Source of the DNA: a virus
Taxonomy: Duplodnaviria; Heunggongvirae; Uroviricota; Caudoviricetes
IMG/VR virus record: IMGVR_UViG_2648501336_000006
Location: 1-41,157 of that record
DNA: 41,157 bases
Strand: one strand, 5' to 3'
The position numbers and the translations under genes were made by a program. This document shows, in pieces, positions 1,331 through 41,157 of the stretch. Position 1 is the first letter of the stretch. Each line of letters opens with the position of its first letter. The notes below the pieces were generated by a model. It was given only the letters and a program-made list of their open reading frames with translations. It did not search any database and was not told where the DNA came from.

Positions 1331-1345
1331 GCTTTTTTATACTAA
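1331..1345. other. attL: attL core (lambda-type 15-bp core GCTTTTTTATACTAA) at the host-prophage junction
   Basis: Exact lambda core sequence; left flank (GTTGAAGCCT) matches the bacterial B arm, right flank (GTTGGCATTATAAAAAAGCATTGCTTATCAATTTGTTGCAACGAACAGGTCACTATCAGTCAAAATAA) matches the lambda P' arm as recalled from memory. Confidence 0.9.
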
Positions 1346-1418
1346 GTTGGCATTATAAAAAAGCATTGCTTATCAATTTGTTGCAACGAACAGGTCACTA
1401 TCAGTCAAAATAAAATCA

Positions 1419-2489
1419 TTATTTGATTTCAATTTTGTCCCACTCCCTGCCTCTGTCATCACGATATTGTGATGCCATGGTGTCCGACTTATGCCCGAGA
1501 AGATGTTGAGCAAACTTATCGCTTATCTGCTTCTCATAGAGTCTTGCAGACAAACTGCGCAACTCGTGAAAGGTAGGCGGATCCCCTTCGAAGGAAAGAC
1601 CTGATGCTTTTCGTGCGCGCATAAAATACCTTGATACTGTGCCGGATGAAAGCGGTTCACGACGAGTAGATGCAATTATGGTTTCTCCACCAAGAATCTC
1701 TTTGCATTTATCAAGTGTTTCCTTCATTGATATCCCGAGAGTATCAACATGCAATGTTGTAGGGATGGCAATTTTTACACCTGTTTTGCTTTGCTCGACA
1801 TAAAGATATCCATCTACGATATCAGACCACTTCATTTCGCATAAATCACCAACTCGCTGCCCGGTAACAACAGCCAGTTCCATTGCAAGTCTGAGCCAAC
1901 ATGGTGATGATTCTGCTGCTTGATAAATTTTCAGGTATTCGTCAGCCGTAAGTCTTGATCTCCTTACCTCTGATTTTGCTGCGCGAGTGGCAGCGACCGG
2001 GTTTGTTGTTATATGGCCTTCAGCTATTGCCTCTCGGAATGCATCACTCAGTGTTGATCTGATTAACTTGGCTGACGCCGCCTTGCCCTCGTCTATGTAT
2101 CCATTGAGCATTGCCGCAATTTCTTTTGTGGTGATGTCTTCAAGTGGAGCATCAGGCAGACCCCTCCTTATTGCTTTAATTTTGCTCATGTAATTTATGA
2201 GAGTCTTCTGCTTGATTCCTCTGCTGGCGAGGATTTTTTCGTAGCGATCAAGCCATGAATGTAACGTAACAGAATTATCACTGTTGATTCTCGCTGTCAG
2301 AGGCTTGTGTTTGTGTCCTGAAAATAACTCAATGTTGGCCTGTATTGCTTCAGTGATTGCTATCCTCCTGTCTCGGCCTAATCCAAACTCTTTACCCGTC
2401 CTTGGGTCCCTGTAGCAGTAATATCCATTGTTTCTTATATAAAGGTTAGGGGGTAAATCCCGGCGCTCATGACTTCGCCTTCTTCCCAT
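1419..2489 (-). CDS. int: Lambda-type integrase (tyrosine site-specific recombinase), 356 aa
   Basis: ATG start confirmed; N-terminus MGRRRSHERRDLPPNLYIRNNGYYCYRDPRTGKEFGLG recognised as lambda Int; length identical to lambda Int; adjacent to attL P' arm. Confidence 0.97.
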   Translation of the reverse strand: MGRRRSHERRDLPPNLYIRNNGYYCYRDPRTGKEFGLGRDRRIAITEAIQANIELFSGHKHKPLTARINSDNSVTLHSWLDRYEKILASRGIKQKTLINYMSKIKAIRRGLPDAPLEDITTKEIAAMLNGYIDEGKAASAKLIRSTLSDAFREAIAEGHITTNPVAATRAAKSEVRRSRLTADEYLKIYQAAESSPCWLRLAMELAVVTGQRVGDLCEMKWSDIVDGYLYVEQSKTGVKIAIPTTLHVDTLGISMKETLDKCKEILGGETIIASTRREPLSSGTVSRYFMRARKASGLSFEGDPPTFHELRSLSARLYEKQISDKFAQHLLGHKSDTMASQYRDDRGREWDKIEIK

Positions 2490-2685
2490 TTCTGATCCTC
2501 TTCAAAAGGCTACCTGTTACTGGTCGATTTAAGTCAACCTTTACCGCTGATTCGTGGAACAGATACTCTCTTCCATCCTTAACCGGAGGAGGGAATATCC
2601 TGCACTCGCGTACCCATCGACGAACTGTTTCAAGGCTTCTTGGGCGTCGCTGGCGTGCGTTCCACTCCTGAAGTGTCAAGTACAT
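2467..2685 (-). CDS. xis: Excisionase Xis, 72 aa
   Basis: Sequence MYLTLQEWNARQRRPRSLETVRRWVRECRIFPPP recognised as lambda Xis; 3' end overlaps int start as in lambda. Confidence 0.95.
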   Translation of the reverse strand: MYLTLQEWNARQRRPRSLETVRRWVRECRIFPPPVKDGREYLFHESAVKVDLNRPVTGSLLKRIRNGKKAKS

Positions 2686-2712
2686 CGCAAAGTCTCCGCA
2701 ATTACACGCAAT

Positions 2713-2736
2713 AAAAAACCGCCATCAGGCGGCTTG
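2713..2736 (-). terminator. Intrinsic terminator-like hairpin (GCCGCC-TGAT-GGCGG then T-run on minus strand) just upstream of xis
   Basis: Minus-strand sequence AAGCCGCCTGATGGCGGTTTTTTATT; GC stem followed by a run of 6 T. Confidence 0.55.
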
Positions 2737-2892
2737 GTGTTCTTTCAGTTCTTCAATTCGAATATTGGTTACGTCTGCATGTGCTATCTGCGCCCATATC
2801 ATCCAGTGGTCATAGCAGTCGTTGATGTTCTCTGCTTCGATAACTCTGTTGAATGGCTCTCCATTCCATTCACCTGTCACCCGGAAGTGCAT
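2725..2892 (-). CDS. Small hypothetical protein (55 aa, MHFRVTGEWNGEPFNRVIEAENINDCYDHW...)
   Basis: ATG start preceded by GGAG Shine-Dalgarno about 7 nt upstream; not in the ORF track (below 60 aa); translated by hand. Confidence 0.4.
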   Translation of the reverse strand: MHFRVTGEWNGEPFNRVIEAENINDCYDHWMIWAQIAHADVTNIRIEELKEHQAA

Positions 2893-2964
2893 TTATCATC
2901 TCCATAAAACAAAACCCGCCGTAGCGAGTTCAGATAAAAGAAATCCCCGCGAGTGCGAGGATTG

Positions 2965-3249
2965 TTATTCATTGCCGATATTCACCTTTATCGCGAACAC
3001 CTTTACCGGTTTATCACCGAAGTGTGGATGTGTGATTGTTTTTATTTCATATCCGTTATACGGGACGTCAATTCTGCGACTGAAGTCTTCGCGCTTCGGA
3101 TATCCCTTTGTGATAATCAGGCGGTCATACTTACGGTTAACGAGGCGCTTATTCCAGTAGTCATTACACAGGCGATACTCTTCCGTTTTATCTCCGCGAA
3201 TCATGGCATCGAAGTATTCACCTTTGACGGCAAGTTGCAGGTTAGCCAC
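2965..3249 (-). CDS. Hypothetical early protein (94 aa), GTG start
   Basis: GTG start with AGGAGG 6 nt upstream; overlaps the stop of the upstream gene (translational coupling). Confidence 0.6.
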   Translation of the reverse strand: MANLQLAVKGEYFDAMIRGDKTEEYRLCNDYWNKRLVNRKYDRLIITKGYPKREDFSRRIDVPYNGYEIKTITHPHFGDKPVKVFAIKVNIGNE

Positions 3250-4114
3250 GGTTAACCTCCTGCGGCGGCTCCGGTAGCGGCATCCAGTGGGTTACTTTCG
3301 ATGCCGGTTCTTCCCCATCGTCAGTAACTGCCCACCATTTGTTTCTCGACCAATCGTAATACCCTTCGAAGGTATCGCACTCAGTCCAGCCGTAAGACTT
3401 CCCCCAACACCAAACATACTGTTTATCGTTCGGCATTCGCTCACTACAGCTTATCCAACCATCCGGAGTTACCGGAGAGTTGCCTGCCAGTCTACGCAAA
3501 ACAGCCTTAACAGCCTCAATACGGTCATCATCGTAACTTTCCGCCGTATCTATGCGGTCGAGCATGATGATTGCGTTATCAATATCAGGATTGCCGGTCC
3601 ACTCATTACCGCGATTGGATTCGGCAGCCTGGTTGCCGCGTACTGGTTGATTGTCGGCTTTACCCAGTCTGTCGTCGCTGCATGAATGCCCTTCCAGCCA
3701 GGCCAATGCTTGTCGCATGAAATACGCAATATGTTTGCCGTGGTAATCGTCTTCATCGATGTGAAAAGCGATACTACGAATGTATTCAATTGCGTTTTCA
3801 ATGGCCTCTAACGCTATCGGCGCTGGCGGAGTGGTGTATAGTTTTCGACATTTGTATATCCAACCGGCATGGTCAGGCGTGTCTGTAAAACGCAAATCGT
3901 CTTCGTAGCACTCACGACTACGTTCTTTCCATTCCGTCCACGGAACACCGCTATTCCAGGTGGGGCGAGTGCAGGACTGATACAGAACAGGCTCTGCTTC
4001 CAGCGATGCCAGTGCGATTTCATAAGCACGGCGCTCAATATCGTCTCGCACGTCCAGGCTGCCGATTCGCTCTTTGATTTCTTTAATCAGTTCTTTGTCG
4101 GTAAAAGTGCTCAT
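3242..4114 (-). CDS. Phage protein with C-terminal DUF551-like domain (290 aa from internal ATG)
   Basis: ORF track entry starts at TTG; internal ATG at 4114 has AAGGAGA SD; C-terminal W/Y-rich segment ending HWMPLPEPP resembles DUF551. Confidence 0.65.
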   Translation of the reverse strand: MSTFTDKELIKEIKERIGSLDVRDDIERRAYEIALASLEAEPVLYQSCTRPTWNSGVPWTEWKERSRECYEDDLRFTDTPDHAGWIYKCRKLYTTPPAPIALEAIENAIEYIRSIAFHIDEDDYHGKHIAYFMRQALAWLEGHSCSDDRLGKADNQPVRGNQAAESNRGNEWTGNPDIDNAIIMLDRIDTAESYDDDRIEAVKAVLRRLAGNSPVTPDGWISCSERMPNDKQYVWCWGKSYGWTECDTFEGYYDWSRNKWWAVTDDGEEPASKVTHWMPLPEPPQEVNRG

Positions 4115-4115
4115 C

Positions 4116-4553
4116 TCACTCTCCTTTGATGCGAATGCCTGTTGCAATGCTGTTTATGATGCTGTCAGTGCATGGGGTAGAAAGCTGGGCATCTCCAGCA
4201 ATTTTCATGACCTCAACATCTGCATATCGAATACCGAGGTGTATCAGACCGGCTATGCCTGACTTAAGCCGAGCATTTTCCATAAATAGAACCTTTGCCC
4301 GCTGTTTTTCTGCTTCAAGCTCAACGCGCAGCTTCCCTACCGTTAGCGCAATATCCTCGTTCTCCTGGTCACGGCGTTTGATGTATTGCTGGTTTCTTTC
4401 CCGTTCATCCAGAAGCGCCAGCACAATGTGTGGCGTTATCAAGGACTCAAATTCGGCAACAGCTTGCTCGCCTCGCTTGTAATTCTTAATCCCACCTAAA
4501 TCTTTCGCGTTCTGTGCCGCCTCACGCAGTGCCTGATAGTCAATCTTGATCAC
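4116..4553 (-). CDS. Hypothetical early protein (145 aa), coiled-coil rich, GTG start
   Basis: GTG start with AAGGAGG SD 7 nt upstream; GTGA overlap with upstream stop. Confidence 0.6.
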   Translation of the reverse strand: MIKIDYQALREAAQNAKDLGGIKNYKRGEQAVAEFESLITPHIVLALLDERERNQQYIKRRDQENEDIALTVGKLRVELEAEKQRAKVLFMENARLKSGIAGLIHLGIRYADVEVMKIAGDAQLSTPCTDSIINSIATGIRIKGE

Positions 4554-5023
4554 TGGTTGCCTCCTTTGCGAAGCTGGGCGGCGAACTCGTTAAGTGATAT
4601 GTAGCAATCTCCAAATGTTAACGAACCGCTCGACTGCATATGCTCCATAGCCATCTCCACGCCCTGCGCACGTACTTCAGCCAGGAAAGCATCGGTGGCT
4701 GGGGTTTTGATTTCGTTAAGCGCATCACTGAATCCACCACGCTCCATACCTAGCTCTGCTTCGTAATCGGCATCGAATGCAGCGTCTTTGCAGAACTTCT
4801 TCATCCCCGAACTCTCCGCTGCCAGCGCCGCGCACTTGGCCTCAAGGTTATCAATCGTGATTCCAGCAGAACGACACTCCCGCAACGCAGCTTCTAGTTT
4901 TGATTCAAGTTCACCGAACTTACGGACAAGATATTCAGCGTTTGTTTCGTTAACCTTTAAATCTCGTGGGATGCATTTACCTTTCAGAAATCCATCCATC
5001 TCAATTAGTGTCATTTGTTTCAT
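4550..5023 (-). CDS. Hypothetical early protein (157 aa)
   Basis: ATG start; part of a tightly coupled leftward operon; no recognisable domain. Confidence 0.6.
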
Positions 5024-5184
5024 TTTTTCCCACTCTGCAACATCGCATTCAGATATTTGTTTTGATTTACTGACGGAAAAGAATTTCTCTTAAGCAATTC
5101 CTCTCTCGATGGCATTGGCTTTACGCGTTGGCGAATAATCATTTCTGCCGGAAGAATGCCGGGATTGTATGCAAGTCCTCTCAT
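5020..5184 (-). CDS. Small hypothetical protein (54 aa, [34 protein letters not shown]...)
   Basis: Hand-translated; ATGA start/stop overlaps with both neighbouring genes; below ORF-track length cutoff. Confidence 0.35.
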
Positions 5185-5471
5185 GATTTACTCTCAACGA
5201 ACTGGTCAATAGCCATGCTAAGTGACATACCTAAAGTTTCGATATGCTGCTGAATATCCTGTAGCGTCTGCGCCTGAGATAACAGGATTTCACGGTTGCA
5301 TAACTCTTTGACCAGATGCTCAAACTTGCTGTAATAACCGATACGACTGAGCGTTTCTTTCCCTGCATTCTCACCTTCTTTGATAATTCCTCTTTCATTA
5401 AGAATCAGGTCGTGTTTGGTTCCGGTAATAACGTATTTGCCGAGGTCGATGTTTAGCTTCATTGTTTTCAT
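5181..5471 (-). CDS. Hypothetical early protein (96 aa from [13 protein letters not shown]...)
   Basis: ORF track start trimmed to the ATG at 5471, which has GAGGAA SD 6 nt upstream. Confidence 0.55.
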
Positions 5472-5481
5472 TGTTAATTCC

Positions 5482-5775
5482 TCAGTCATTACTGATAGCG
5501 CCATAGCGTGAGCGGTAATTACGCAGGCGCGGGTCAATTTCAGGGAAGTGGGTATATGTGGCTTTGCGGAATGGTCGGATTGATGTCTGGTAAATTCGCT
5601 CGCGTTCTTCTTTCTCTGCAAGCCATATACAGTGGCGAAATTCCTTTTCCTCTTTCGTTTCCTGTGGTAGCGACATTATCCGATCGTAGTTTCTTCTGAA
5701 TTTATCCAGCACCTCCGATACGGAATTGCCGGAACAGCGGCGCGCGTCATCCGCACCATACAGAGGCGCTGGCAT
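5482..5775 (-). CDS. Hypothetical early protein (97 aa)
   Basis: ATG start with AGGAGA SD 6 nt upstream. Confidence 0.6.
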   Translation of the reverse strand: MPAPLYGADDARRCSGNSVSEVLDKFRRNYDRIMSLPQETKEEKEFRHCIWLAEKEERERIYQTSIRPFRKATYTHFPEIDPRLRNYRSRYGAISND

Positions 5776-5791
5776 GGTTTTCTCCTGTTGA

Positions 5792-6340
5792 TTATTTAGC
5801 TAACTTTTTCCAGATCGCTGAAACGTATTTGGCTTGGTGAATGGCATCATCAAGCGCGTTGTGGCGAGTTCCTTTGAATGGCATATCTCGCTTAGGGTCG
5901 AATCCTATTACCTTCCCAAGTTCGACGATTGTTCTTACGTCGCGGTCATTCCACCACTGCCACGGAACTGGCTGCCCTGTCAGCGAATAACTGTTGCGGA
6001 GAATAACGCAGTCAAATGATGCTCCATTCCCCCAAACCTGAACGAATTTGTGGTTAGCGTTCTTTATGATGAATTCAGATAACCATGAAAGAGCCGTTGA
6101 AAGCTCCTGAGTGTTGCTGGTTAGCGATTTTCTGGCTTCTTCACTCTGTTCCAGCCACCATAAAATCGTTGAAGCGTCAGGACGCGCCCGATATCGCATT
6201 GATGACTCAAGCGAGATATTTACCGAGAACTCTTCTCCTGTTTCTCCGGTATTCGGGTCAAAGAATACTGCCCCAATAGAAATAACTGGCGCGTATGGCC
6301 CGTTGCCCATTGTTTCAAGGTCAACCATCAAGTGATTCAT
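5792..6340 (-). CDS. DnaQ-like (DEDDh) 3'-5' exonuclease, 182 aa
   Basis: Exo motifs visible: DLET (Exo I), GASFD (Exo II), HNALDDA (Exo III); ATG start with AAGGA SD. Confidence 0.75.
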   Translation of the reverse strand: MNHLMVDLETMGNGPYAPVISIGAVFFDPNTGETGEEFSVNISLESSMRYRARPDASTILWWLEQSEEARKSLTSNTQELSTALSWLSEFIIKNANHKFVQVWGNGASFDCVILRNSYSLTGQPVPWQWWNDRDVRTIVELGKVIGFDPKRDMPFKGTRHNALDDAIHQAKYVSAIWKKLAK

Positions 6341-6348
6341 GTAAGTCC

Positions 6349-6855
6349 TTAAATTGCGTGAATAGCGTGACGAGGGAAGGGGAGAGTTACTGGTGCAAAG
6401 GGTATATCGTCGTCAAAATCCATCGGAGGTTCGTTGTGTTGTGCTGGTGATGATTGCTGCTGTGGCTTCTGTGATTGCCTGCTGGCTGCTTGTTGTTTGC
6501 TGTCGCCAATGCCGCCAAGCATTTGCATCACGCCATTAATTCCGACATGAACCTCGGTTGTGTAACGGTCTTGTCCTGACTGGTCTTTCCACTTTCTGGT
6601 TCTCAGCATTCCCTCGAAATAAATCTGATCACCTTTTTTCACATACTGCCCCACGACCTCAGCCAGTTTCCCGGATACAGCAACACGATGCCATTCAGTC
6701 AATTCCTTTTGCTCGCCAGTATTTTTATCTCGCCATTGTTCTGACGTGGCTATTGTCAGGTTAGCGAACGCTGTTCCTGATGGTGAGTATCGAACTTCCG
6801 GGTCTTGTCCTACCCGACCAAGGATAATCACCTTATTTACGCCTCTGCTTGCCAT
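6349..6855 (-). CDS. ssb: Single-stranded DNA-binding protein SSB with 15-aa extension beyond the DDDIPF tip
   Basis: OB-fold region closely resembles E. coli SSB ([27 protein letters not shown]...); contains [10 protein letters not shown] followed by [15 protein letters not shown] before the stop. Confidence 0.9.
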
Positions 6856-7563
6856 TTATGCCGCCTGTTTTAGTTCGTTAACTCTGATGTTCATTACCTG
6901 AACGCATTTAGCCTGCGCATCCTCATTGCCAGCCATTAATTGCCAGTCACGCTGATAACGCTCGATGAGTTTTTTCTTGTCAGTTTCTGTTGATGCATAA
7001 TCGCTGAAGTCTTTCAGGATTTGTTCGCAGTCAACCGATGGAGATTTCTGGTTGGTATTTTCTGGTGATGGTTTGTTATCTGATGCTGGGATTGCCCATA
7101 CCAGCAGCGATGGAGGGAGCCAGTAAAATCCTGTTCCATCCTTCAGTTTTGCCCTGTGCCACCCCTGTTTTTTATCGAGAGATGTTTGTGCGAAACCTTC
7201 CTCAAGGTTATACAGATACCGACCGATTCCCCACTGAACGGCAGCGCGCTTCATTGCACCGGAACGACCACCTTTGACGGCTTCTACCTGCGTGTTTTCA
7301 GCAGCATCCCATTTGGTTACCCATTCGGAATCAATCTTGATTGATATGCCGCATTCAACTCCGCCGTTGTTGGGAATATCGCGGTATTCATTGCGCCATC
7401 CTGCTTTGCCGCAAACATCGTCCAGGCGTTTCATGATTGCCCTGTTCGTGACATAAGCCAGCACCATAGCCCACACCTTGCCATCGCGTGTTTTACCGCT
7501 TTGCTGTATTCGCCATTCGATATCTTCAGGGCTGAATGGCTCATCGAATTTGTTCAAATCCAT
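6856..7563 (-). CDS. Rad52/22-family single-strand annealing protein (recombinase), 235 aa
   Basis: Family assignment from sequence recollection and from position next to ssb in the recombination module; ATG start with GAGGTG SD. Confidence 0.6.
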   Translation of the reverse strand: MDLNKFDEPFSPEDIEWRIQQSGKTRDGKVWAMVLAYVTNRAIMKRLDDVCGKAGWRNEYRDIPNNGGVECGISIKIDSEWVTKWDAAENTQVEAVKGGRSGAMKRAAVQWGIGRYLYNLEEGFAQTSLDKKQGWHRAKLKDGTGFYWLPPSLLVWAIPASDNKPSPENTNQKSPSVDCEQILKDFSDYASTETDKKKLIERYQRDWQLMAGNEDAQAKCVQVMNIRVNELKQAA

Positions 7564-7662
7564 AATTCACCTCAGAATGGACACGGCCCAAGGAAATAAC
7601 GCTGATTTAATACTTCGACTCGGGACAAATTAAGGCATACCCGCATTCCTTCGCGGTCGCCA

Positions 7663-7821
7663 TTATGGCGATACCAGAGAGCTTTCTGCGTGTACATGCG
7701 CCTCTGTAACTTGCTCTCCTTCACTGTGGTTGCAAGTGACATGAATATCTCCTTCGTTGCCGATTAATTCTTTCATCTGACGAATGAATTCTTCGTCTGA
7801 CCAGTTATCTGTAAAACTCAT
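7663..7821 (-). CDS. Small protein in kil position (52 aa from internal ATG)
   Basis: ORF track start is TTG; internal ATG at 7821 overlaps the cIII-like stop (ATGA); call as kil-like is positional only. Confidence 0.4.
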   Translation of the reverse strand: MSFTDNWSDEEFIRQMKELIGNEGDIHVTCNHSEGEQVTEAHVHAESSLVSP

Positions 7822-7988
7822 GGACGGCCTTGTTGTTTCAAAATATCCCAAAGCTTTTCGAGCAAACTTTTCATTCTTGGTTGTTTAAAGTCTGCTCCGG
7901 TTAAAATGTTTTTTCGTGAATGCTGCACCGATAAAATTGGGTTGAAAGGGCGAACCGATGCCGCCCCTGCAATAGCGAACTGTTGCAT
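7818..7988 (-). CDS. cIII: CIII-like protein (FtsH inhibitor family), 56 aa
   Basis: MQQFAIAGAASVRP...LWDILKQQGRP parallels lambda CIII (MQYAIAGWPVAG...LIDILNQPGVP); strong GAAGGAG SD 7 nt upstream of ATG. Confidence 0.7.
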   Translation of the reverse strand: MQQFAIAGAASVRPFNPILSVQHSRKNILTGADFKQPRMKSLLEKLWDILKQQGRP

Positions 7989-8212
7989 AGGATGCTCCTT
8001 CTGTTTGATTGCATAACGAAAATGCCTCAAGTGAAGCGTTATTGGTATGCATATAAAAAGGCCCTCACATCGGAGGGCAAAGAAGATTTCCAATAATCAG
8101 AACAAGTCGGCTCCTGTTTAGTTACGAGCGACATTGCTCCGTGTATTCACTCGTTGGAATGAATACACAGTGCAGTGTTTATTCTGTTGTTTATGCCAAA
8201 AATAAAGGACGA

Positions 8213-8836
8213 TTATGCGACCTCGGAAGGAAGTCCAATCATCTTATTCAAATCTTCTACCCGTAAAGCAGGAAGTGCTGTACTTGCTTTATCTGCTTCT
8301 TTTGGTAGCAACTCTTTGCTTTCAGGCCAAACTTCAATAAGTCGCTTAACTGTTGTGACTGAGTTCAAAGCAGCCCATACATTTGATTCGATATCCTTTT
8401 TCTTGGCTTCAAGTTTTTGTTGCAATGCGCAGATTTCATCAAACCTTTTTGTTATTTCGTGTTCTGCGCTAAACATGCATTTATCTTTGGTCGGAGTAGG
8501 GAGCAATATATCTTCGCCGTTGCCGTCTTTCCCATATGAATACCAGCCAACCCTTCTGCCAGATACAGTCAGATAAATTGAAGTTGAACGGGCATCGCAT
8601 GAGTAAAATGAACATCCCAGCTTTTCAAGTTCTTCGCTTATAGCCATTAACTTGGATGATAACTGATCCACTTCCTCAGTTTTCTTTTTACCGCCAAACA
8701 CAACAACTCTGGCGTCAAGTGCAAGCTGGTTCTTTAACTTTGTTACTTCTTCAAGCTCAGTGAAAACCCCAGATTTAATTAAAGCGTTACGAGCGATTTT
8801 CTCTTTCATACTCGTTGTTAAGCGGATTGATGACAT
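8213..8836 (-). CDS. Hypothetical 207-aa soluble protein in the N-cIII accessory slot
   Basis: ORF track start trimmed to the ATG at 8836 with GAGAGGAA SD; no transmembrane segment; no recognisable domain. Confidence 0.6.
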   Translation of the reverse strand: MSSIRLTTSMKEKIARNALIKSGVFTELEEVTKLKNQLALDARVVVFGGKKKTEEVDQLSSKLMAISEELEKLGCSFYSCDARSTSIYLTVSGRRVGWYSYGKDGNGEDILLPTPTKDKCMFSAEHEITKRFDEICALQQKLEAKKKDIESNVWAALNSVTTVKRLIEVWPESKELLPKEADKASTALPALRVEDLNKMIGLPSEVA

Positions 8837-8950
8837 ATTAATTCCTCTCAAATAAGTGGTTTGCTGCCTAATTTCATTTTCTGGCGACCAACACAAGTCA
8901 CGCCCATTTCACTGCGTGGTTTGCTGTAGTAAATTCGGTTAGTTCAGACA

Positions 8951-8975
8951 ATAAAAAACCCACCGAAGTGGGCTA
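8951..8975 (-). terminator. Intrinsic terminator (tL1-like) downstream of the first gene after N
   Basis: Minus strand CCCAC-TTCG-GTGGG stem-loop followed by TTTTTTATT. Confidence 0.65.
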
Positions 8976-9311
8976 TGACCATTTTTTATTTGGATTTCGT
9001 TGGTGAGCGTGGTTAACAACCCTGTGCATTACATCCTCATATTTTTCATCTTCAATTTTTTCAACATCGCGAGGAAATGGTGTTGCTAATGCTTTGTCAA
9101 CTTTGTCCATTGGGTCTTCATTAATCTTATATTCAGGACCGTCATCTATAGCATTAAAGCCAGGTGTTACACCGTTTTTTAATGCATATGCTATCCTCTT
9201 TTCCCATCTCGCTATTCTCCTCCTGTCTCGAGATGTAAGACCTCTATCAGATACTTTTCTATTTTGTCCGTGGTCGGGATTAACATAAATAGTCTTTTTC
9301 ACCATAAGCAT
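8973..9311 (-). CDS. Hypothetical protein (112 aa) immediately downstream of N
   Basis: ATG at 9311 two nt after the N stop codon; no recognisable domain. Confidence 0.55.
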   Translation of the reverse strand: MLMVKKTIYVNPDHGQNRKVSDRGLTSRDRRRIARWEKRIAYALKNGVTPGFNAIDDGPEYKINEDPMDKVDKALATPFPRDVEKIEDEKYEDVMHRVVNHAHQRNPNKKWS

Positions 9312-9313
9312 AC

Positions 9314-9619
9314 TCAATAAGCACCGTACGGTGGTTTACTGTACAATTTTATTTTTTGGACTGCATGTATTTTGTTTCCTAATGGGTTTGAATCCTTGTA
9401 ATAAATACTTCTATTTTTTCGAACGACTTCTTCTTTCTTCTTGCAGCAAAGGCTTCCTAGTGATGCTGCTTTGTCTGCTCTGACGCAACCAGAGAGCTTT
9501 AGCGCAATTTTTCGCGCCAGTGCTTCATTACTGCGTCGCTCGGCAATAAGTTCTGCTCTGCGAGCTTTGTAGCGGCTTTTTGCCGTACCTTTGGATTCTT
9601 TCCAGACAATGGTTACCAT
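9314..9619 (-). CDS. N: Antitermination protein N, phage-21 type arginine-rich motif (101 aa)
   Basis: N-terminal GTAKSRYKARRAELIAERR matches the phage 21 N boxB-binding peptide as recalled; AAGGAGA SD; lies between pL/nutL and the leftward operon. Confidence 0.85.
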   Translation of the reverse strand: MVTIVWKESKGTAKSRYKARRAELIAERRSNEALARKIALKLSGCVRADKAASLGSLCCKKKEEVVRKNRSIYYKDSNPLGNKIHAVQKIKLYSKPPYGAY

Positions 9620-9728
9620 GATGGTCTCCTTTAAGTGGCTTTGGCGCATGACGCGTCGAGGTGCTTATCTTCTCGATCGCTGTCTTGCAGCTGCAATTCG
9701 CGCCATCCCCAAAACCACTCAAGTTCTG

Positions 9729-10650: not shown

Positions 10651-10664
10651 TTCGGAGCGAGTCT

Positions 10665-33493: not shown

Positions 33494-33538
33494 TCGAACC
33501 GACTGTTACCATATTAACCTCCCGATAGCCATGGATGG

Positions 33539-33838
33539 CTATTCTGACATCCTTTTTAATTTATTGTATGACTCTATAGAATCTGTGCACAACTTCATGA
33601 ACTCTTGAAGTGACATTCCTAGGCGAGAAATTTCCGTATTCAAAAAACGTTCAATAAATTCATCTCCGCCTGGCATCTGGGTTGCTTCTTGAAAAGCAAA
33701 CATTTGTTTAAATGTTCCACACATACCAGCAACTTTAGCTGTAACTAACATGTCGTTAGCAAATTTCAGATCCTTATCTTGCGATTGTGCAAGACCACTA
33801 ATTAGAAAACAGAATGCACCTATAACCCATCGCTTCAC
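33539..33838 (-). CDS. Small secreted protein (99 aa) with Sec signal peptide, antisense to the virion operon
   Basis: GTG start with GGAGG 5 nt upstream; signal peptide KRWVIGAFCFLISGLAQS-QD; AT-rich context. Confidence 0.55.
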   Translation of the reverse strand: MKRWVIGAFCFLISGLAQSQDKDLKFANDMLVTAKVAGMCGTFKQMFAFQEATQMPGGDEFIERFLNTEISRLGMSLQEFMKLCTDSIESYNKLKRMSE

Positions 33839-34219
33839 ACCAACCTCCAACCTCCTTAGTTTTGAGCAGGATACCAGATGATACTTTATTGGTGGAGTGG
33901 TGTGTGAAAACGTGTCAACGACAAACCATCCACAACTTGGACGAATGATTTAGCAAAAAGTGCTATTTTTGGTGTTTAGTGTCATAGAAAAGTGAATAGC
34001 TCACTTTTCAACATTGCATGAAACTTGCAGGAAATGTGACATTACCTTATAGGTAACTTCGGCGAAAATGCAGTAAATGTGAAACGTAATGATTTAAACG
34101 TGTCGAGAAAGTGGTTGTAAGTTAGCCTCTGAAGGATTGATGACAGCTTTGTTATGGTATTAAATGCAACTTGACACAGTTGTATACATAGCTGCGGCTA
34201 TCAAGATGGAGGTATGTTT

Positions 34220-34663
34220 ATGCTCACTTGTTTTGATGTCGCCGACTACTTCTTGGCGCATTGCGATGAAGAAAGTGGCGACATTATCTCTAACCTAAAA
34301 ATTCAGAAGTTGACGTATTATGCCCAAGGGTTTTCTCTGGTTCTTCTGGGTAAGCCGCTATTTAATGAGAAAATTGAAGCCTGGATGCATGGGCCAGTAG
34401 TTCCTGAATTGTATCGTAAATATAGGGACTGTGGTAACGGAGCTTTACCTGCGCCAGAAAACTTTGACGCTAAAAAATTCAGTGAAGATGAAATTGAATT
34501 GCTGGATGAGGTGTATAAAGTTTATGGTCAGTTTTCTGCCTGGAAACTGCGCAATATGACTCACGAAGAGCAGCCATGGAAAGATGCTTACATTGAGGGT
34601 GCGGTTAGCCAAGAAATCACACTTGATTCTATGAAAGGTTTTTTCAAAACGTTAATTAACTGA
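34220..34663 (+). CDS. Panacea (DUF4065)-like domain protein, putative antitoxin-type component, 147 aa
   Basis: Motifs KIQKLTYYAQGFSL...GKPLF.E.IEAWMHGPVVPELY recalled as typical of DUF4065/GepA/SocA-like proteins; GGAGG SD 7 nt upstream of ATG 34220. Confidence 0.55.
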   Translation: MLTCFDVADYFLAHCDEESGDIISNLKIQKLTYYAQGFSLVLLGKPLFNEKIEAWMHGPVVPELYRKYRDCGNGALPAPENFDAKKFSEDEIELLDEVYKVYGQFSAWKLRNMTHEEQPWKDAYIEGAVSQEITLDSMKGFFKTLIN

Positions 34664-34668: not shown

Positions 34669-35091
34669 ATGTCTAGAGTTAAGGGAAGAATAAAACAGAG
34701 GGATAAAGAGAGCTCTGCTACTGTTGGCCTCTCTATCCATCACGAATCTCATGATGTAGACAAAAGTCCGCCTGTATTTTCTCTTAGATACCTACAAAAG
34801 GGGTATTGCCTGGATTGCTGCCAAAAGCATGAAAAGGCAGCATTTGCAGATAGGCTGTTCAGGTTAAGTCAGATGTCATGGGATGAGATACGAAAATCTG
34901 ATAAACACGGACTTGGGACGGAAAAAATTGCCAGAAACGCGATAAAGGCTCCGATTCCTAAGCATGTTACTCAAGATGTGGATTTCATTGCGTTCAGGTT
35001 TTGCTCTAAGGCACCTATGGTTGGTTATAAGATTGGAGCCACTTTTTATGTCTTATGGCTCGACAGGGAGTTCAAGCTATACAAGCACTAA
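34669..35091 (+). CDS. Unknown 140-aa basic protein, operon partner of the Panacea-like gene
   Basis: ATG 5 nt after the upstream stop; followed by a terminator; no domain recognised. Confidence 0.55.
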   Translation: MSRVKGRIKQRDKESSATVGLSIHHESHDVDKSPPVFSLRYLQKGYCLDCCQKHEKAAFADRLFRLSQMSWDEIRKSDKHGLGTEKIARNAIKAPIPKHVTQDVDFIAFRFCSKAPMVGYKIGATFYVLWLDREFKLYKH

Positions 35092-35095: not shown

Positions 35096-35122
35096 ACCCA
35101 CCGTCAGGTGGGTTTTTTATCT
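35096..35122 (+). terminator. Intrinsic terminator after the two-gene cargo operon (hairpin shared with convergent gene)
   Basis: ACCCACC-GTCA-GGTGGGT followed by TTTTTTAT. Confidence 0.75.
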
Positions 35123-35370
35123 TCTCCGTACATGCTGCTGAGAGTCTTAAGAAGAGCCTCCCTAAATTTTTCAGATTCTTGTTGAGCAAAACCTTCTATC
35201 GATCTTGGTGATTTTTCTTCATCAATAGCGGCTTGCAAGATCATAACTATTTCTGAATTTAATGAACGACCGTTTCTCGATGCCCTTATGGTCAAGTCGC
35301 GCTTGAGGCTATCTGGCATTCTTACGCTATATGGGGCTATGTCTCTAACCTTTGTTTTCATCGTTGCCAT
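35104..35370 (-). CDS. Ribbon-helix-helix (Arc/Mnt family) DNA-binding protein, 88 aa
   Basis: RMPDSLKRDLTIRASRNGRSLNSEIV motif (NGRS.NSEI) characteristic of Arc/Mnt RHH repressors. Confidence 0.7.
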   Translation of the reverse strand: MATMKTKVRDIAPYSVRMPDSLKRDLTIRASRNGRSLNSEIVMILQAAIDEEKSPRSIEGFAQQESEKFREALLKTLSSMYGEDKKPT

Positions 35371-35602
35371 ACATGCATTTCAACTTCTCAACATCATGCT
35401 CAAGATCTATCAATCGTGATGCTATAGTTGCAAGATCTAGTGCTTGAATGTGTTTGTTTTTTTCGGTCCATGCTTCAAGTGCTGCGACCATCTCAGCATT
35501 TAATGAACGAGAATTAGCCTCAGCCAGTTCAATAAGACGTTCCTTTATCTCTACAGGAAGCCTCAGATTCACTTGAGGGTTTTTGTACTTACGATCAGAC
35601 AT
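35345..35602 (-). CDS. Mnt-like ribbon-helix-helix repressor, 85 aa (positional mnt)
   Basis: NLRLPVEIKERLIELAEANSRSLNAEMV; divergent from the arc-ant promoter; overlaps downstream RHH gene by 26 nt. Confidence 0.7.
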   Translation of the reverse strand: MSDRKYKNPQVNLRLPVEIKERLIELAEANSRSLNAEMVAALEAWTEKNKHIQALDLATIASRLIDLEHDVEKLKCMYGNDENKG

Positions 35603-35648
35603 CGGCGCATCCTGAATAAATTTTTACCACAGGATATGTAGGTATCTA

Positions 35649-35677
35649 TTGACTATCAATGCGTACCTAAATACTAT
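35649..35677 (+). promoter_or_regulatory. Pant-like promoter (TTGACT-17-TACTAT) with flanking imperfect palindromes
   Basis: Hexamers at 35649-35654 and 35672-35677; repeated GCGTACC motifs nearby. Confidence 0.55.
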
Positions 35678-35707
35678 GTATGCGTACCACATACAACGGA
35701 GGACGCA

Positions 35708-35848
35708 ATGAAGGTAAAAACACTGCGTATGCCAGAGAAGTTAGAAAAAATCCTTGAAGAGAAAGCAAAGGAAGAGTGTCGCTCATTTAGCGCAGAAGTA
35801 ATTAAACGGGTGATGGACAGCCTGAAGAGAGAGGGGATAACGGTGTGA
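35708..35848 (+). CDS. Arc-like ribbon-helix-helix repressor, 46 aa
   Basis: Hand-translated MKVKTLRMPEKLEKILEEKAKEECRSFSAEVIKRVMDSLKREGITV; GGAGG SD 6 nt upstream; below ORF-track cutoff. Confidence 0.6.
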   Translation: MKVKTLRMPEKLEKILEEKAKEECRSFSAEVIKRVMDSLKREGITV

Positions 35849-36080
35849 TTCGCTTGGATGCAGTAGTCAAAGAGATTGCGATTACCATTTTAAGACCAAA
35901 TTTTGTTCATGGCGAATCATTTGGCACGAACGAAAAATTGAGAAGAGAAAGAGTATTCAGTGGCAAGCGCACGTTTTCAGAAGTGATGCTTGATGCGGCA
36001 AAGAAATCAAAACAGTGAAGCCCCAACTGCTGGAACAGTCAGGGCTTCGGTTGTCGGTAAATCCGTGGAGAAAAACCAAC

Positions 36081-36983
36081 ATGAATAGTATAGCAATTTT
36101 AGAAGCAGTGAACACCTCTTACGTACCATTCAACGGTCAGCAAATTATCACCGCCATGGCTGCCGGAGTTGCATATGTTGCGATGAAGCCAATCGTTGAA
36201 AACCTTGGAATGAGCTGGTCAACGCAGCAAACAAAACTCATGAAGCAGATTAGCAAATTCAACTGTGTTCATATGAACATGGTTGCCGCTGATGGAAAGC
36301 TTCGTAAGCTACTCTGCCTTCCTTTGAAGAAGTTAAATGGATGGCTGTTCAGCATCAACCCTGAGAAAGTTCGTGCTGACATCCGCGATAAACTGATTCA
36401 GTACCAGGAAGAATGCTTTACTGTGCTGCATGACTACTGGACAAAGGGAAAGGCAGAAAATACACGTAAGAAAACATCTGTTGATGACAGGACTCCGCTT
36501 CGTGATGCTGTAAATATGCTGGTCAGCAAAAAGCATCTAATGTACCCAGAAGCTTATGCAATGATTCATCAGCGTTTCAATGTGGAAAGTATTGAAGAGC
36601 TTGATGCATCTCAGATACCGCAAGCCGTAGAGTACATCCACAGGGTAGTGCTTGAAGGTGAGTTCATCGGCAAACAAGAGAAGAAAACCAACGAGCTTTC
36701 TGCAAAAGAAGCAAACAGCCTTGTATGGCTATGGGATTATGCCAACCGCTCACAGGCATTATTCCGCGAACTGTATCCGGCATTAAAACAAATTCAATCG
36801 AACTATTCCGGCAGATGTCATGACTGCGGTTATGAGTTCTCCCGTATTATCGATATAGCGAGAGACGTTTTAATTAATCACACACGAGATGTTGATATCA
36901 ATGAGCCAGACGGACCAACGAATCTTTCCGCATGGATGAGGCTTAAGAATAAAGAATTGCCGCCTTCTGTTCATCTGTATTAA
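36081..36983 (+). CDS. ant: Antirepressor Ant (P22 Ant type), 300 aa
   Basis: ORF track start is GTG; ATG at 36081 gives 300 aa, the P22 Ant length; N-terminus [22 protein letters not shown] recalled as P22 Ant. Confidence 0.8.
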
Positions 36984-37066
36984 TGACGCATCTGGCGGTG
37001 AAAAAAACCGCCAGTGTGCTGCTGGCGGCCTATGTCACACCCTTACTACCACATAAGGAATGCCTA

Positions 37067-37795
37067 ATGACTTTTAAGAATGTAGCAAACATCGGATCCG
37101 TTGTCACGGATAAAACCATTGACAGCCAGCGCCTGCTTGAGATGGTAAATCAGGCTCGTAGACAGTGCGGTGAGCCGGAGGTTCGTAATAACAAATTCAT
37201 CGAGAAAATTGAAGATGAATTGGATGGAGAGCACTACACAAAAAGTGTAGTGCAAAAAGCGAACAAAACTTCGATGGTTATCATTGAGATGTCAATCAAG
37301 CAAGCATTGCGAGTTGCCGCTCGCGAGTCAAAAGCCGTTCGCCGCTCACTGGTAGACCAACTTGAAAGTATGCAAGAAGCGCACATTAAAAGCGGTAAAT
37401 CAGCGAGTGGACTTGTTGAGTATCGTCAAGCGCGAACATTGAAAATGACGGTTGAAGCTGTTACCAATCTGTTCGATCTGATGCCAAATCTTGCGCCGGA
37501 AGCAAAGCAGACTGCTGCAGCAAGCATAATCAACCCGCTCGTTGGTTTTAATGCAATACCTCTTCCGGCAATAGAAGAGCATTACTACTCAGCAGGGGAG
37601 GTTGCAGAGCAGCTTGGAGTAACGGCCAACAAGATTGGTCGCATTGCTAACGCAAACAACCTCAAAACTGAGCAGTACGGGAAGTTCTTCCTGGATAAAT
37701 CTGCGCATTCCAGCAAACAGGTGGAAGCATTCCGCTACAATGAGGAAGGCGTTAAAGCACTACAACACCTGCTACATGGCTCAAATGTGGCGTAA
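37067..37795 (+). CDS. Hypothetical protein downstream of ant (242 aa)
   Basis: ATG at 37067 with AAGGAA SD; followed by a bidirectional terminator; no domain recognised. Confidence 0.5.
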   Translation: MTFKNVANIGSVVTDKTIDSQRLLEMVNQARRQCGEPEVRNNKFIEKIEDELDGEHYTKSVVQKANKTSMVIIEMSIKQALRVAARESKAVRRSLVDQLESMQEAHIKSGKSASGLVEYRQARTLKMTVEAVTNLFDLMPNLAPEAKQTAAASIINPLVGFNAIPLPAIEEHYYSAGEVAEQLGVTANKIGRIANANNLKTEQYGKFFLDKSAHSSKQVEAFRYNEEGVKALQHLLHGSNVA

Positions 37796-37814
37796 CATTT
37801 TATAATGAAAACTA

Positions 37815-37840
37815 AACCCGCTTAATCGCGGGTTTTTTCT
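37815..37840. terminator. Bidirectional terminator hairpin between the ant-region gene and the convergent Mnt-like gene
   Basis: ACCCGC-TTAATC-GCGGGT followed by TTTTTTCTTTCC on plus; A/T-rich on the other side. Confidence 0.65.
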
Positions 37841-38079
37841 TTCCTTAGAATTTCAGCCGCAACTTCTTTTACTCGTTCCGAGATTAATGAGGCCAGCCTC
37901 TCTTCTTCATCACGATACCCGCTTACAGGTGATGGTTTGGAGAGTGATTCTTCCATCGTAGCCACAATTTCGGAATTGATAGACCTGTTATTCATTTTTG
38001 CACGCTGCTTAATCTTAGCGTGCAACTCGTGTGTAAGCCTCAAGTGGAACTGCGCCTCATCGTATTTGCTGTACATCAT
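37822..38079 (-). CDS. Second Mnt-like ribbon-helix-helix repressor, 85 aa, divergent from the tailspike gene
   Basis: FHLRLTHELHAKIKQRAKMNNRSINSEIVATMEESLSKPSPVSGYRDEEERLA closely parallels P22 Mnt (RSMNSELLQIVQDALSKPSPVTGYRNDAERLA) as recalled. Confidence 0.8.
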   Translation of the reverse strand: MMYSKYDEAQFHLRLTHELHAKIKQRAKMNNRSINSEIVATMEESLSKPSPVSGYRDEEERLASLISERVKEVAAEILRKEKTRD

Positions 38080-38211
38080 CAATGCCTCACCAAATGGGTG
38101 GAATGGCATCGTAAAACCCACTGTACAAATCAACAATCGTACCGTTTCGGTATGTAACAAATGCCAACCGTAGCCATGCTGCGGCCATTCCTTGTATCTG
38201 GAGCAAATTAA

Positions 38212-41157
38212 ATGACAGACATTACAGCCAATGTTGTAGTGAGTATGCCTTCGCAACTCTTCACTATGGCGCGTTCTTTTAAAGCCGTAGCCAATGGCAA
38301 AATTTATATCGGAAAAATTGACACTGACCCGGTAAATCCTGAAAACCAGATTCAGGTTTATGTAGAGAACGAAGATGGATCTCACGTTCCTGTTTCTCAA
38401 CCAATCATCATTAACGCTGCTGGATATCCGGTATATAACGGACAGATTGCCAAATTCGTTACCGTGCAAGGCCATTCTATGGCTGTTTATGATGCGTATG
38501 GTGCGCAGCAGTTCTATTTTCCTAATGTGCTGAAGTATGATCCTGATCAGTTACGGCAGCAATTAGAAGACACAGATGGAGCGAATAAATACCCAAAACT
38601 TCAGATAGCAAGATGGAGAGACAGTTATGATGTAAGAGGTTGGGGGGCTATTGGTGATGGTGTTCATGATGACACATCAGCTCTATCAGAATTACTTTCT
38701 GTTGCAACAGGTGGTGAAAAGATAGATGGGCGAGGGCTTACTTTTAAAGTATCAACTCTTCCAGATGTCAGTCGATTTAAAAATGCTCGTTTTTTATTTG
38801 AGAGAATACCGGGTCAGCCTCTTTTTTATGCTTCTGAAGATTTTATCCAGGGAGAGTTATTTAAAATTACAGATACACCGTGGTACAACGCCTGGACGCA
38901 GGATAAAACGTTTGTATATGACAATGTCATCTATGCGCCTTTTATGGCTGGAGACCGCCATGGTGTAAATAACCTCCATGTTGCATGGGTTCGCTCAGGA
39001 GATGACGGGAAGACCTGGACAACGCCGGAATGGCTTACAGATTTACATGAAAACTATCCCACAGTTAACTATCACTGCATGAGTATGGGGGTTGTCAGAA
39101 ATCGCCTTTTTGCTGTAATTGAGACGCGGACCGTGAGCGGAAATAAACTGCAGGTTGCAGAGTTGTGGGATCGCCCAATGAGTCGCAGCCTTCGCGTTTA
39201 TGGTGGTATAACGAAAGCAGCAAATCAGCAAGTCGCTTATATTCGCATTACTGATCACGGATTATTTGCTGGTGATTTTGTCAACTTCTCAAACTCTGGT
39301 GTTACAGGTGTTACCGGGAATATGACGGTGACTACTGTCATTGATAAAAATACTTTTACAGTTACGACGCAAAATACCCAGGATGTGGATCAGAATAACG
39401 AGGGTAGATACTGGAGTTTTGGTACATCATTTCACTCGTCACCATGGAGAAAAACCAGTCTTGGAACTATTCCTTCTTTTGTTGACGGAAGCACTCCTGT
39501 TACTGAGATTCACAGTTTTGCGACGATTAGCGATAACAGTTTTGCTGTTGGCTACCATAATGGTGATATTGGTCCACGCGAGCTTGGGATACTCTATTTC
39601 TCTGATGCTTTCGGTTCTCCTGGTAGCTTTGTTCGCAGACGCATACCTGTAGAATATGAGGCGAATGCATCTGAGCCATGTGTAAAATATTATGATGGCA
39701 TTCTGTATCTGACGACCAGGGGGACATTAAGTACTCAACCCGGTAGTTCATTGCACAGAAGCTCTGATTTAGGTACATCATGGAATTCTCTTCGCTTCCC
39801 AAATAATGTTCATCACTCAAACCTTCCTTTTGCCAAAGTTGGCGATGAGCTGATTATTTTTGGCAGTGAGCGCGCATTTGGTGAGTGGGAAGGAGGAGAA
39901 CCTGATAACCGTTATGCAGGAAATTATCCAAGAACATTTATGACCAGAGTTAACGTCAATGAGTGGAGTCTGGATAATGTAGAGTGGGTTAATGTTACTG
40001 ATCAGATTTATCAGGGCGGAATAGTTAACTCTGCGGTTGGTGTTGGTTCAGTTTGTATCAAAGACAACTGGCTGTACTACATTTTCGGTGGGGAAGACTT
40101 TCTAAACCCATGGAGCATAGGGGATAACAACAGAAAATATCCTTATGTTCACGATGGTCACCCGGCTGATTTGTATTGTTTCAGGGTGAAAATTAAACAG
40201 GAAGAATTTGTTTCAAGGGATTTTGTCTACGGAGCCACTCCTAACAGAACGCTTCCTACTTTTATGTCGACGTCAGGCGTGAGGACGGTTCCTGTACCCG
40301 TTGATTTCACAGATGATGTTGCCGTCCAGTCACTGACTGTCCATGCCGGTACATCAGGACAAGTTCGCGCGGAAGTCAAACTTGAGGGTAATTACGCCAT
40401 TATTGCGAAGAAAGTACCGTCTGATGATGTTACCGCTCAGAGATTAATCGTTAGCGGCGGTGAAACAACGTCTTCAGCAGATGGTGCAATGATAACGTTG
40501 CATGGTTCCGGAAGCAGTACTCCACGTCGCGCGGTATATAACGCACTCGAACATCTTTTTGAGAACGGAGATGTTAAACCTTATCTTGATAATGTAAATG
40601 CTCTTGGTGGTCCGGGAAACAGGTTCTCGACAGTTTATCTTGGCTCCAATCCTGTGGTTACCAGTGACGGAACATTAAAGACAGAGCCGGTCTCTCCTGA
40701 CGAAGCATTGCTGGATGCCTGGGGTGACGTCAGGTATATCGCTTATAAATGGCTGAACGCTGTCGCTATAAAGGGAGAAGAAGGGGCGAGGATACATCAT
40801 GGTGTAATCGCGCAGCAACTTCGTGATGTTCTTATTTCTCACGGACTCATGGAAGAAGAAAGCACAACATGCCGCTATGCCTTTCTTTGCTATGACGATT
40901 ATCCCGCAGTATATGATGACGTCATTACTGGCCAAAGGGAAATTCCGCTGACTGATAATGACGGGAGCATCATTGTTGATGAGGATGATAATCCAGTGAT
41001 GGTAATGGAAGACATCATTGAGCGCGTTGAAATAACGCCAGCAGGATCTAGATGGGGAGTCAGACCTGATCTCTTATTCTATATCGAGGCAGCATGGCAG
41101 CGCAGAGAAATAGAGAGAATAAAAGCTAGGTTAGACTTAATAGAAGGGAAGCACTAA
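38212..41157 (+). CDS. Tailspike: P22-type head-binding domain + endosialidase-like beta-propeller + C-terminal intramolecular chaperone domain, 981 aa
   Basis: N-terminus [43 protein letters not shown] matches P22 gp9 head-binding domain; Asp-boxes SGDDGKTW and SSDLGTSW; C-terminal SDGTLK (Ser818/Lys823) resembles the autoproteolytic S/K dyad of endosialidase chaperone domains. Confidence 0.85.

Follow-up and report, generated by a model that had tools for sequence, protein, structure and literature searches.

An apparently intact P22-like prophage at the lambda attachment site of Escherichia coli that joins known lambdoid gene blocks in a new combination

CUS-3 (CP000711), a K1-specific P22-like prophage of Escherichia coli (E. 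coli) RS218, and Kapi1 (vB_EcoP_Kapi1, MT813197), an O-antigen-specific temperate phage of the mouse commensal E. coli MP1, both integrate at argW. Earlier work has shown that Kapi1 is plaque-forming and that its induction by mitomycin C depends on recA (PMC8787464). P22-like prophages at the lambda attachment site, between ybhC and ybhB, are also already known: those of 720R6 (vB_EcoP-720R6, ON470605), strain 998 (from urine) and strain MS20659 (from blood) carry the same attL, int and xis and the same endosialidase tailspike of 981 amino acids (aa) as the element described here. Phage 21 (OL657228) is a lambda-like siphovirus with cos packaging that integrates at icd by its own integrase. 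Here we analysed the virus record IMGVR_UViG_2648501336_000006 over its full length of 41,157 nucleotides, referred to as the window. From position 1331 to its end the window holds a prophage of about 39.8 kb, which is very probably an apparently intact temperate P22-like podovirus prophage of E. coli (Lederbergvirus, CUS-3 structural subtype) with a lambda-type integrase at lambda attB and a new combination of known lambdoid and P22-like blocks.

Extent, relatives and joints of the prophage

The prophage is a mosaic of known gene blocks, which recombination has joined at the borders of genes and domains and at short conserved 'boundary sequences'. Mosaicism of this kind is normal and textbook-expected for the P22-like group; the exact combination is new. 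Both halves of the window were used as queries, and among 50,697 phage records and 5,426 complete E. coli genomes none held at least 80% of either half. Full local alignment showed that 64.6% of the prophage could be aligned to the MS20659 prophage, 61.0% to Kapi1, 60.6% to the strain 998 prophage, 58.4% to CUS-3 and 51.8% to 720R6. As no record reached the threshold for either half and the five closest relatives align over only 52-65%, an origin from a single donor was rejected, and uniformly high identity to one described phage, which would speak against mosaicism, was not found. The original prediction, made from the letters of the window, had proposed six modules of different ancestry. This mosaicism is real; four of the six assignments hold (integration, N/nut, terminase and tailspike) and two had to be corrected (immunity and lysis).

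It is hardly credible that the window represents an isolate of a described phage, i.e., CUS-3, Kapi1 or 720R6. The tailspike does share 99% identity with its CUS-3 and 720R6 counterparts, int and xis match 720R6 without a mismatch, and large blocks are identical to Kapi1, but the aligned prophage DNA ranges only from 51.8 to 64.6% across the five relatives, and both CUS-3 and Kapi1 use a different integrase, in CUS-3 an unrelated one, at a different site.

The window stops on the stop codon of the tailspike gene. We estimated the whole prophage at about 40.5 kb, because in 720R6, strain 998 and MS20659 the attR core, with a lambda-like P arm, lies 617-620 bp beyond this stop codon. The virion genes follow the order terS, terL, portal, scaffold, coat, gp4, gp10, gp26, gp14, gp7, gp20, gp16, ant moron and tailspike, as in CUS-3, Kapi1, Sf6 and P22. 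This syntenic virion cluster, the CUS-3-type portal, scaffold and coat, and a tailspike with a P22 gp9-type head-binding domain place the prophage in the CUS-3 subtype of Lederbergvirus.

To locate the joints, identity to 16 reference loci was determined in 200-bp sliding windows and the positions of mismatches were listed. About 28 transitions were found in 39.8 kb, most of them at gene, domain or known boundary-sequence positions. The module boundaries, which had been proposed as likely recombination joints worth mapping, can be mapped. The following joints were assigned:

2968, boundary of the orf55 homologue with its neighbouring gene
5775/5792, abc2/exonuclease gene boundary
7570, between erf and the next open reading frame
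8051-8062, tL2 region, corresponding to 'bsq4' of Sf6
13877-13944, tR2/ninA region, corresponding to 'bsq6' of Sf6
16286-16290, between ninH and Q
17055-17310, corresponding to 'bsq3' of CUS-3
17310, start of the holin gene
17996-18000, between R and Rz
19487-19507, immediately ahead of terS
about 21767, past the conserved 5' part of the portal gene
26478, between gp4 and gp10
about 28135-28214, past the conserved N-terminus of the gp26 needle
36975-37000, end of ant
about 38552-38565, border of the tailspike head-binding domain with the endosialidase domains

The Sf6 and CUS-3 annotations label bsq4, bsq6 and bsq3, all of them short and conserved, as boundary sequences, and joints at such boundaries are a general pattern in lambdoid and P22-like phages (PMC2629481; PMC10883804). 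Sequence identities, domain content, intact reading frames and joint positions were all read directly from the window. Four segments (4115-4520, 16950-17044, 35120-35340 and 38020-38166) had no good match among the 16 reference loci.

Two blocks were nearly identical to Kapi1. The first (8062-13944), which comprises the Nmad5 gene, nun, N, imm21, cII, O and P, has 2 mismatches in 5,883 bp, and the second (28698-33845), with gp14, gp7, gp20 and gp16, has none in 5,148 bp, while the head genes between them are about 96% identical at the DNA level. This pattern indicates a very recent exchange with a Kapi1-like phage of another receptor and another attachment site. In principle, the alternation of blocks of almost zero divergence with blocks of about 96% identity could also arise from collapsed repeats, i.e., from a chimeric contig assembled from at least two related prophages of one genome, such as a Kapi1-like and a 720R6-like one; many E. 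coli genomes harbor several lambdoid prophages, with a median of 4 matching places per genome. However, the transitions fall at genes, domains and boundary sequences, the genes are in frame, and the gene set is complete, syntenic and single-copy. In addition, the joints N-nun, N/imm21 and head-binding/endosialidase recur independently in other genomes, and the left flank is a clean attL. We therefore consider an assembly artefact very improbable and treat the mosaic as a natural one.

Integration, immunity and early genes

The left end of the window contains the host flank, the attachment site and the genes of the early-left operon:

1-1284, minus strand: ybhC, the host gene flanking lambda attB
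1331-1345, plus strand: attL core GCTTTTTTATACTAA (lambda O core, 15 bp, equal to lambda 27724-27738), followed by the P' arm to about 1418
1419-2489, minus strand: int, lambda-type, 356 aa (Pfam Arm-DNA-bind_1, PF09003; Phage_integrase, PF00589)
2467-2685, minus strand: xis, lambda-type, 72 aa (Pfam Exc, PF07825)
2725-8093, minus strand: early-left accessory and recombination genes (lambda orf55 homologue, DUF551/Ea22-like genes, abc2, exonuclease, ssb, erf, kil, cIII)
5792-6340, minus strand: Rv2179c-like 3'-5' exonuclease (exoribonuclease domain, Pfam PF16473)
6349-6855, minus strand: ssb
6856-7563, minus strand: erf
8213-8896, minus strand: gene with nucleotide modification associated domain 5 (Nmad5; Pfam PF18757, E=1.8e-70)

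Bases 1-1330 match E. coli strains in which ybhC is annotated, and this segment (ybhC and the B arm) is 100.00% identical to E. coli 998 and MS20659. Homology to lambda begins precisely at 1331, which corresponds to the first core base (lambda 27724), and extends with 97.9% identity to 2968 (lambda 29361). The core and P' arm (1331-1466) show no mismatch to lambda. Int and Xis are 99% identical to the lambda proteins and 100% identical to those of 720R6, to which 1419-2711 has no mismatch at all. The predicted lambda-type core and int/xis next to ybhC are thus well founded.

The early-left region is a patchwork of segments of 720R6, mEpX2, Sf6 and HK97 with 95-100% identity; the labels kil and cIII were taken from the annotation of homologues in the 720R6, HK97 and mEpX2 records. 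The Rv2179c-like exonuclease gene between abc2 and ssb/erf is 98-99% identical to mEpX2 and is absent from CUS-3, Kapi1, Sf6 and P22. A remnant of the phage 21 N 3' end (8847-8940, 94 bp, 95.7% identical to phage 21 33640-33733) overlaps the 5' end of the Nmad5 gene. Since the listed reading frame starts within this remnant, the true start is probably located further downstream.

The adjacent control region was resolved into the following features:

8973-9299, minus strand: nun, HK022-type transcription arrest (lambda exclusion) factor, 109 aa, open frame reaching 9311 (phrog_5632 'Nun-like', E=2e-70)
9314-9619, minus strand: N antiterminator, a chimera of phage 21 N (residues 1-57) and, in its C-terminal third, the HK022 segment upstream of nun
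9719-9779: nutL, a 61-base stretch covering boxA and boxB, identical to phage 21
9817-9898: OL1-3, identical to phage 21
9934-10584, minus strand: cI, 100% protein identity to phage 21
10585-10650: OR1-3, identical to phage 21
10665-10850, plus strand: cro, 100% protein identity to phage 21
10849-10909: nutR, a 61-base stretch covering boxA and boxB, identical to phage 21

An N and nut sites of phage 21 type had been predicted, and both were recovered: N has the same residues 1-57 as phage 21 N, among them the arginine-rich motif GTAKSRYKARRAELIAERR, and the two 61-base nut stretches are likewise identical to phage 21; the nut sequences of P22 are unlike them. A full-length phage 21 N is absent, as some 44 C-terminal residues have diverged and originate from the HK022-type segment upstream of nun. 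The crossover zone could be narrowed to 9397-9473, where 14 mismatches to phage 21 occur within 77 bp, followed by 4 in 1,731 bp. Upstream of nun, HK022 retains no more of N than a remnant of its 3' end, whereas in the window prophage this segment is fused in frame to the 5' part of phage 21 N, resulting in a complete N gene. The adjacent Nun differs from the HK022 reading frame by a single residue (H for S at residue 13). The arginine-rich motif is present and the C-terminal residues that contact RNA polymerase, H93 to W108, are retained (C-terminal sequence HRVVNHAHQRNPNKKWS).

The N-nun tandem as such was considered as a novelty and rejected, as it is already annotated in mEp235, mEpX1 and PA28. 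Both genes are annotated in mEp235 and mEpX1, with 97.5-98.2% identity to the tandem of the window, and at least 80% of the 951-bp N-nun segment is present in 22 phage records and in 213 of the 5,426 E. coli genomes.

The imm21 region spans 9719-10909. The immunity had been proposed to be of P22 type. At the family level this stands, as cI and Cro are 94 and 98% identical to the P22 proteins; specifically, the region is of phage 21 type, with 100% identity for both proteins. All six 18-bp operators are identical to phage 21, compared to two of six for P22, and the DNA identity of the immunity region amounts to 98.7% for phage 21 and 83.8% for P22. Furthermore, CII is 96% identical to that of phage 21 and has no match to P22 c1. 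P22 immC and phage 21 repressors share specificity, a view that the present sequence comparison supports; a literature search for a paper stating this shared specificity found none. As only 4 of the 1,731 positions from 9474 to 11204 differ from phage 21, N/nut and immunity form one contiguous phage 21 block with no joint in between, and not two modules as originally assumed. CUS-3 differs in the N arginine-rich motif and the nut sites, has only 85% DNA identity in the immunity region and lacks nun.

Downstream of cro, the replication, nin and Q genes were identified as follows:

10966-13880, plus strand: cII (phage 21 type), a small open reading frame, O and P
11560-12507, plus strand: O, CUS-3/HK97-type
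12504-13880, plus strand: P, DnaB-type helicase, CUS-3/HK97-type
13936-16289, plus strand: nin region with ninB, ninE, ninF, roi, an hkbD homologue, rusA and ninH
16286-16870, plus strand: Q of the Q21 family, 98% protein identity to Sf6 gp59 and 85% to Q21

Identity in the nin region is 97-99%, from ninB to ninF to phage 21 and lambda and from roi to ninH to HK620, CUS-3 and Kapi1. The late promoter, the Q-binding repeats and tR' all occur in the Sf6 form. In phage 21, Sf6 and Kapi1 the genes for tRNA-Asn and tRNA-Thr directly follow tR', and the window has an unrelated 177-bp segment at this place (16868-17070). tRNA genes downstream of tR' were rejected, as neither ARAGORN nor Rfam detected any and only about 26 bases of homology to the 3' end of the Sf6 tRNA-Thr gene are left (approximately 17045-17070). 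ARAGORN identified no tRNA gene in the whole window, and the only Rfam family to reach the threshold in the window was the sar antisense RNA.

Lysis, virion and accessory genes

The lysis cassette is followed by a gene for a KilA-N domain protein:

17315-17518, plus strand: class II holin (Pfam PF16080, HP1 holin family, 75 bits)
17490-17993, plus strand: signal-arrest-release (SAR) endolysin (PF00959), 95% protein identity to R21 with the same N-terminal SAR segment
17990-18427, plus strand: Rz, Sf6/P22-type
18162-18365, plus strand: Rz1, Sf6/P22-type
18456-19148, plus strand: KilA-N domain protein (PF04383), in a segment 92.5% identical to Salmonella phage Emek

The assignment of lysis to phage 21 applies to the endolysin only. 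The holin belongs to PF16080 and is identical to that of Emek, to which 17142-17996 is 98.1% identical, and Rz/Rz1 show 97-98% protein identity to Sf6 and 57% to phage 21. For the S21 holin family (PF04971) the holin scored 19.5 bits with a cut-off of 26, and tblastn of the holin gave no match to S21. Nevertheless, the holin resembles S21 in shape: it is 67 aa long, has a dual-start motif and contains two hydrophobic segments. It probably acts together with the SAR endolysin in the manner of a pinholin. The cassette thus differs from CUS-3, in which holin and endolysin are lambda-type, from Kapi1, in which this applies to Q and the lysis cassette, and from phage 21, which has S21 as its holin.

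The virion genes comprise four blocks:

19513-21350, plus strand: terS (141 aa, Sf6-type; PF20901 Sf6_terminase, E=4e-44) and terL (471 aa)
21352-26478, plus strand: portal, scaffold, coat, a small open reading frame and gp4, CUS-3 structural type
26488-28859, plus strand: gp10 and the gp26 tail needle with knob (317 aa)
28856-33493, plus strand: gp14 and the ejection proteins gp7, gp20 and gp16, Kapi1-type, 99-100% protein identity to Kapi1

The PF20901 match, together with protein identities to Sf6 of 89% for TerS and 100% for TerL, confirms the Sf6-type terminase that had been proposed. The portal, scaffold, coat and gp4 proteins are 96-100% identical to those of CUS-3, Kapi1 and 720R6; in the comparison to Sf6 and P22 these proteins reached 29-56%, and within the set of portal, scaffold and coat some had no match. 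gp10 is 98-99% identical to those of all E. coli P22-like phages, and gp26 is 98% identical to that of 720R6 and 79-80% to those of Sf6 and Kapi1. Earlier studies have demonstrated that whole sets of ejection proteins can be swapped as a unit between P22-like phages, giving rise to viable phage (PMC10883804).

The remaining part of the window carries an accessory gene pair, the ant moron and the tailspike:

34214-34663, plus strand: SocA/Panacea antitoxin-domain protein, 149 aa (PF13274, E=2e-24)
34669-35091, plus strand: its 140-aa partner (phrog_8366)
35104-38109: immI-type 'ant moron', complete region
35104-35602, minus strand: two mnt-like genes
35845-36018: arc
36014-36080, minus strand: antisense sar RNA (Rfam sar, 83.9 bits)
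36015-36983: ant, 85% protein identity to P22 Ant, 97-99% DNA identity to epsilon34 and phiv205-1
36983-37795: second antirepressor, 270 aa (phrog_1726)
37822 to about 38109, minus strand: Arc/Mnt-like gene with an Arc domain
38212-41157, plus strand: endosialidase tailspike, 981 aa, with a P22-type head-binding domain (aa 1-113; PF09008, E=5e-67) followed by endosialidase and C-terminal chaperone domains

The segment 34214-35091, which lies in the ant-moron region, is 99% identical to phage EC.P3, and its two genes may encode a toxin-antitoxin or defence pair. A PADLOC search of the accessory genes for known defence systems yielded nothing convincing, only a weak NsnC-like match at 34669-35091 (E=2e-7). 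Between ant and the tailspike, the second antirepressor gene and the divergent Arc/Mnt-like gene form an insertion (36983-38109), for which the closest match is Klebsiella phage phiKp_30 (92%).

The K1-type endosialidase tailspike was correctly recognized in the original prediction. The gene is 98.9% identical to CUS-3 siaK1 and 99.2% to 720R6 at the DNA level, and 99% to both at the protein level; identity to the tailspikes of the 720R6, 998 and MS20659 prophages is 99.2-99.3%. The Pfam domains PF09008, PF12218, PF12217, PF12195, PF12219 and PF13884 (the S74 chaperone) are present, and the endosialidase parts are complete with N-terminal extension, beta-propeller, beta-barrel and stalk. This architecture is that described for CUS-3 (PMC5380687).

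Predicted function and comparison with known systems

The activities proposed in the following, inducibility and the existence of an attR are predictions from sequence. In the lysogen, a RecA-cleavable cI of phage 21 specificity would keep pL and pR off, with the immI circuit of mnt, arc, sar and ant as a second layer of control. Upon SOS induction, N would act at nut sites of phage 21 specificity to extend early transcription, O and the DnaB-type P would mediate replication, and the Q21-family Q would switch on late transcription. The Sf6-type terminase is predicted to package DNA by the headful mechanism into CUS-3-type heads, and the class II holin would lyse the cell together with the SAR endolysin and Rz/Rz1. 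During infection, the endosialidase tailspike would cleave the K1 polysialic acid capsule and the Kapi1-identical ejection proteins would deliver the DNA. Nun expressed from the prophage probably excludes phages with lambda-type boxB.

We consider the prophage probably inducible and productive. The original prediction had argued for inducibility from the mosaic combination, but this step does not follow: relics are also mosaic, so mosaicism says nothing on function. More telling, all core genes are full length: their alignments to homologues from propagated phages cover 96-100% of each gene at 89-100% protein identity. A single reading-frame remnant was seen, that of the phage 21 N 3' end (94 bp), and it lies beside an intact N. 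No transposase or insertion sequence (IS) was detected among the scanned proteins or DNA matches, no frameshift was seen, and attL, nut and operator sequences do not differ from those of functional prototypes. The ejection proteins came together as one co-adapted set, of the kind whose exchange between P22-like phages gives viable phage (PMC10883804). With full-length core genes and a switch and replication block that differs at 2 of 5,883 bases from the inducible Kapi1, a functional phage is plausible.

Several points weigh against this conclusion. The attR and P arm, on which excision competence would depend, are located beyond the end of the window. N is chimeric, though the same chimera is present in the viable phages Kapi1 and mEp235. 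The exact block combination has not been seen in any propagated phage (none of the 50,697 phage records), and blocks may be incompatible, e.g., the 720R6-type needle with the Kapi1-type gp14. Point defects in promoters and harmful missense changes would escape notice at the level of sequence. The prophage might therefore be a defective relic that looks intact and is unable to excise or grow, because attR was lost, regulation is mutated or blocks do not fit together. Decay occurs in the lineage, as the MS20659 prophage at the same site has an IS100 insertion and a split helicase gene (locus positions 4572-7422 and 15726-18119). Given full-length core frames, the prototype attL, nut and operator sequences, the lack of detected IS elements and frameshifts, and two blocks nearly identical to an inducible phage, we regard such a relic as unlikely and favor a functional prophage.

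K1-capsule-specific P22-like prophages are not limited to argW, the site of CUS-3; in blood and urine isolates of E. coli they also occupy lambda attB. From the imm21 region, cross-immunity with phage 21 and lambda imm21 is expected, and from Nun the exclusion of lambda-type phages. The near identity of two blocks to Kapi1 indicates that the immunity/replication and ejection-protein cassettes moved recently between phages with different receptors. As a tentative and more far-reaching view, the element may be an active K1-specific temperate phage that records a very recent exchange with a phage of different lifestyle, the O-antigen-specific, argW-integrating Kapi1 lineage (two cassettes of more than 5 kb with 0-2 mismatches), and that also stacks several protection functions in an extraintestinal-type E. 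coli host: imm21, HK022 Nun, the Panacea-domain toxin-antitoxin-like pair and immI with two antirepressors. If this were true, the zero-divergence block edges would represent natural joints at base resolution between phages with different receptors and attachment sites.

Compared to the known systems, the prophage shares with CUS-3 the tailspike, the portal, scaffold, coat, gp4 and gp10 (96-99% protein identity), O, P, the genes from roi to Q and one mnt. CUS-3 differs in TerS (30% protein identity), gp14 and gp16 (23-25%), gp7 and gp20 (71 and 84%, each over part of the length), and in its ant moron. Kapi1 has the blocks 8062-13944 and 28698-33845 and the head genes in common with the window but carries RecT-type recombination genes, tRNA genes, another receptor-binding domain in the tailspike and another ant moron. 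The prophages of 720R6, 998 and MS20659 also have CUS-3-type heads; they differ in the immunity region (720R6) or else in the replication, lysis and ejection-protein blocks. Phage 21 shares residues 1-57 of N, nutL, OL, cI, OR, cro, nutR, cII and ninB to ninF, but lacks nun and differs in virion type, packaging and integration. Module shuffling among lambdoid and P22-like phages is well documented; the prophage adds a further natural combination and leaves the current understanding unchanged.

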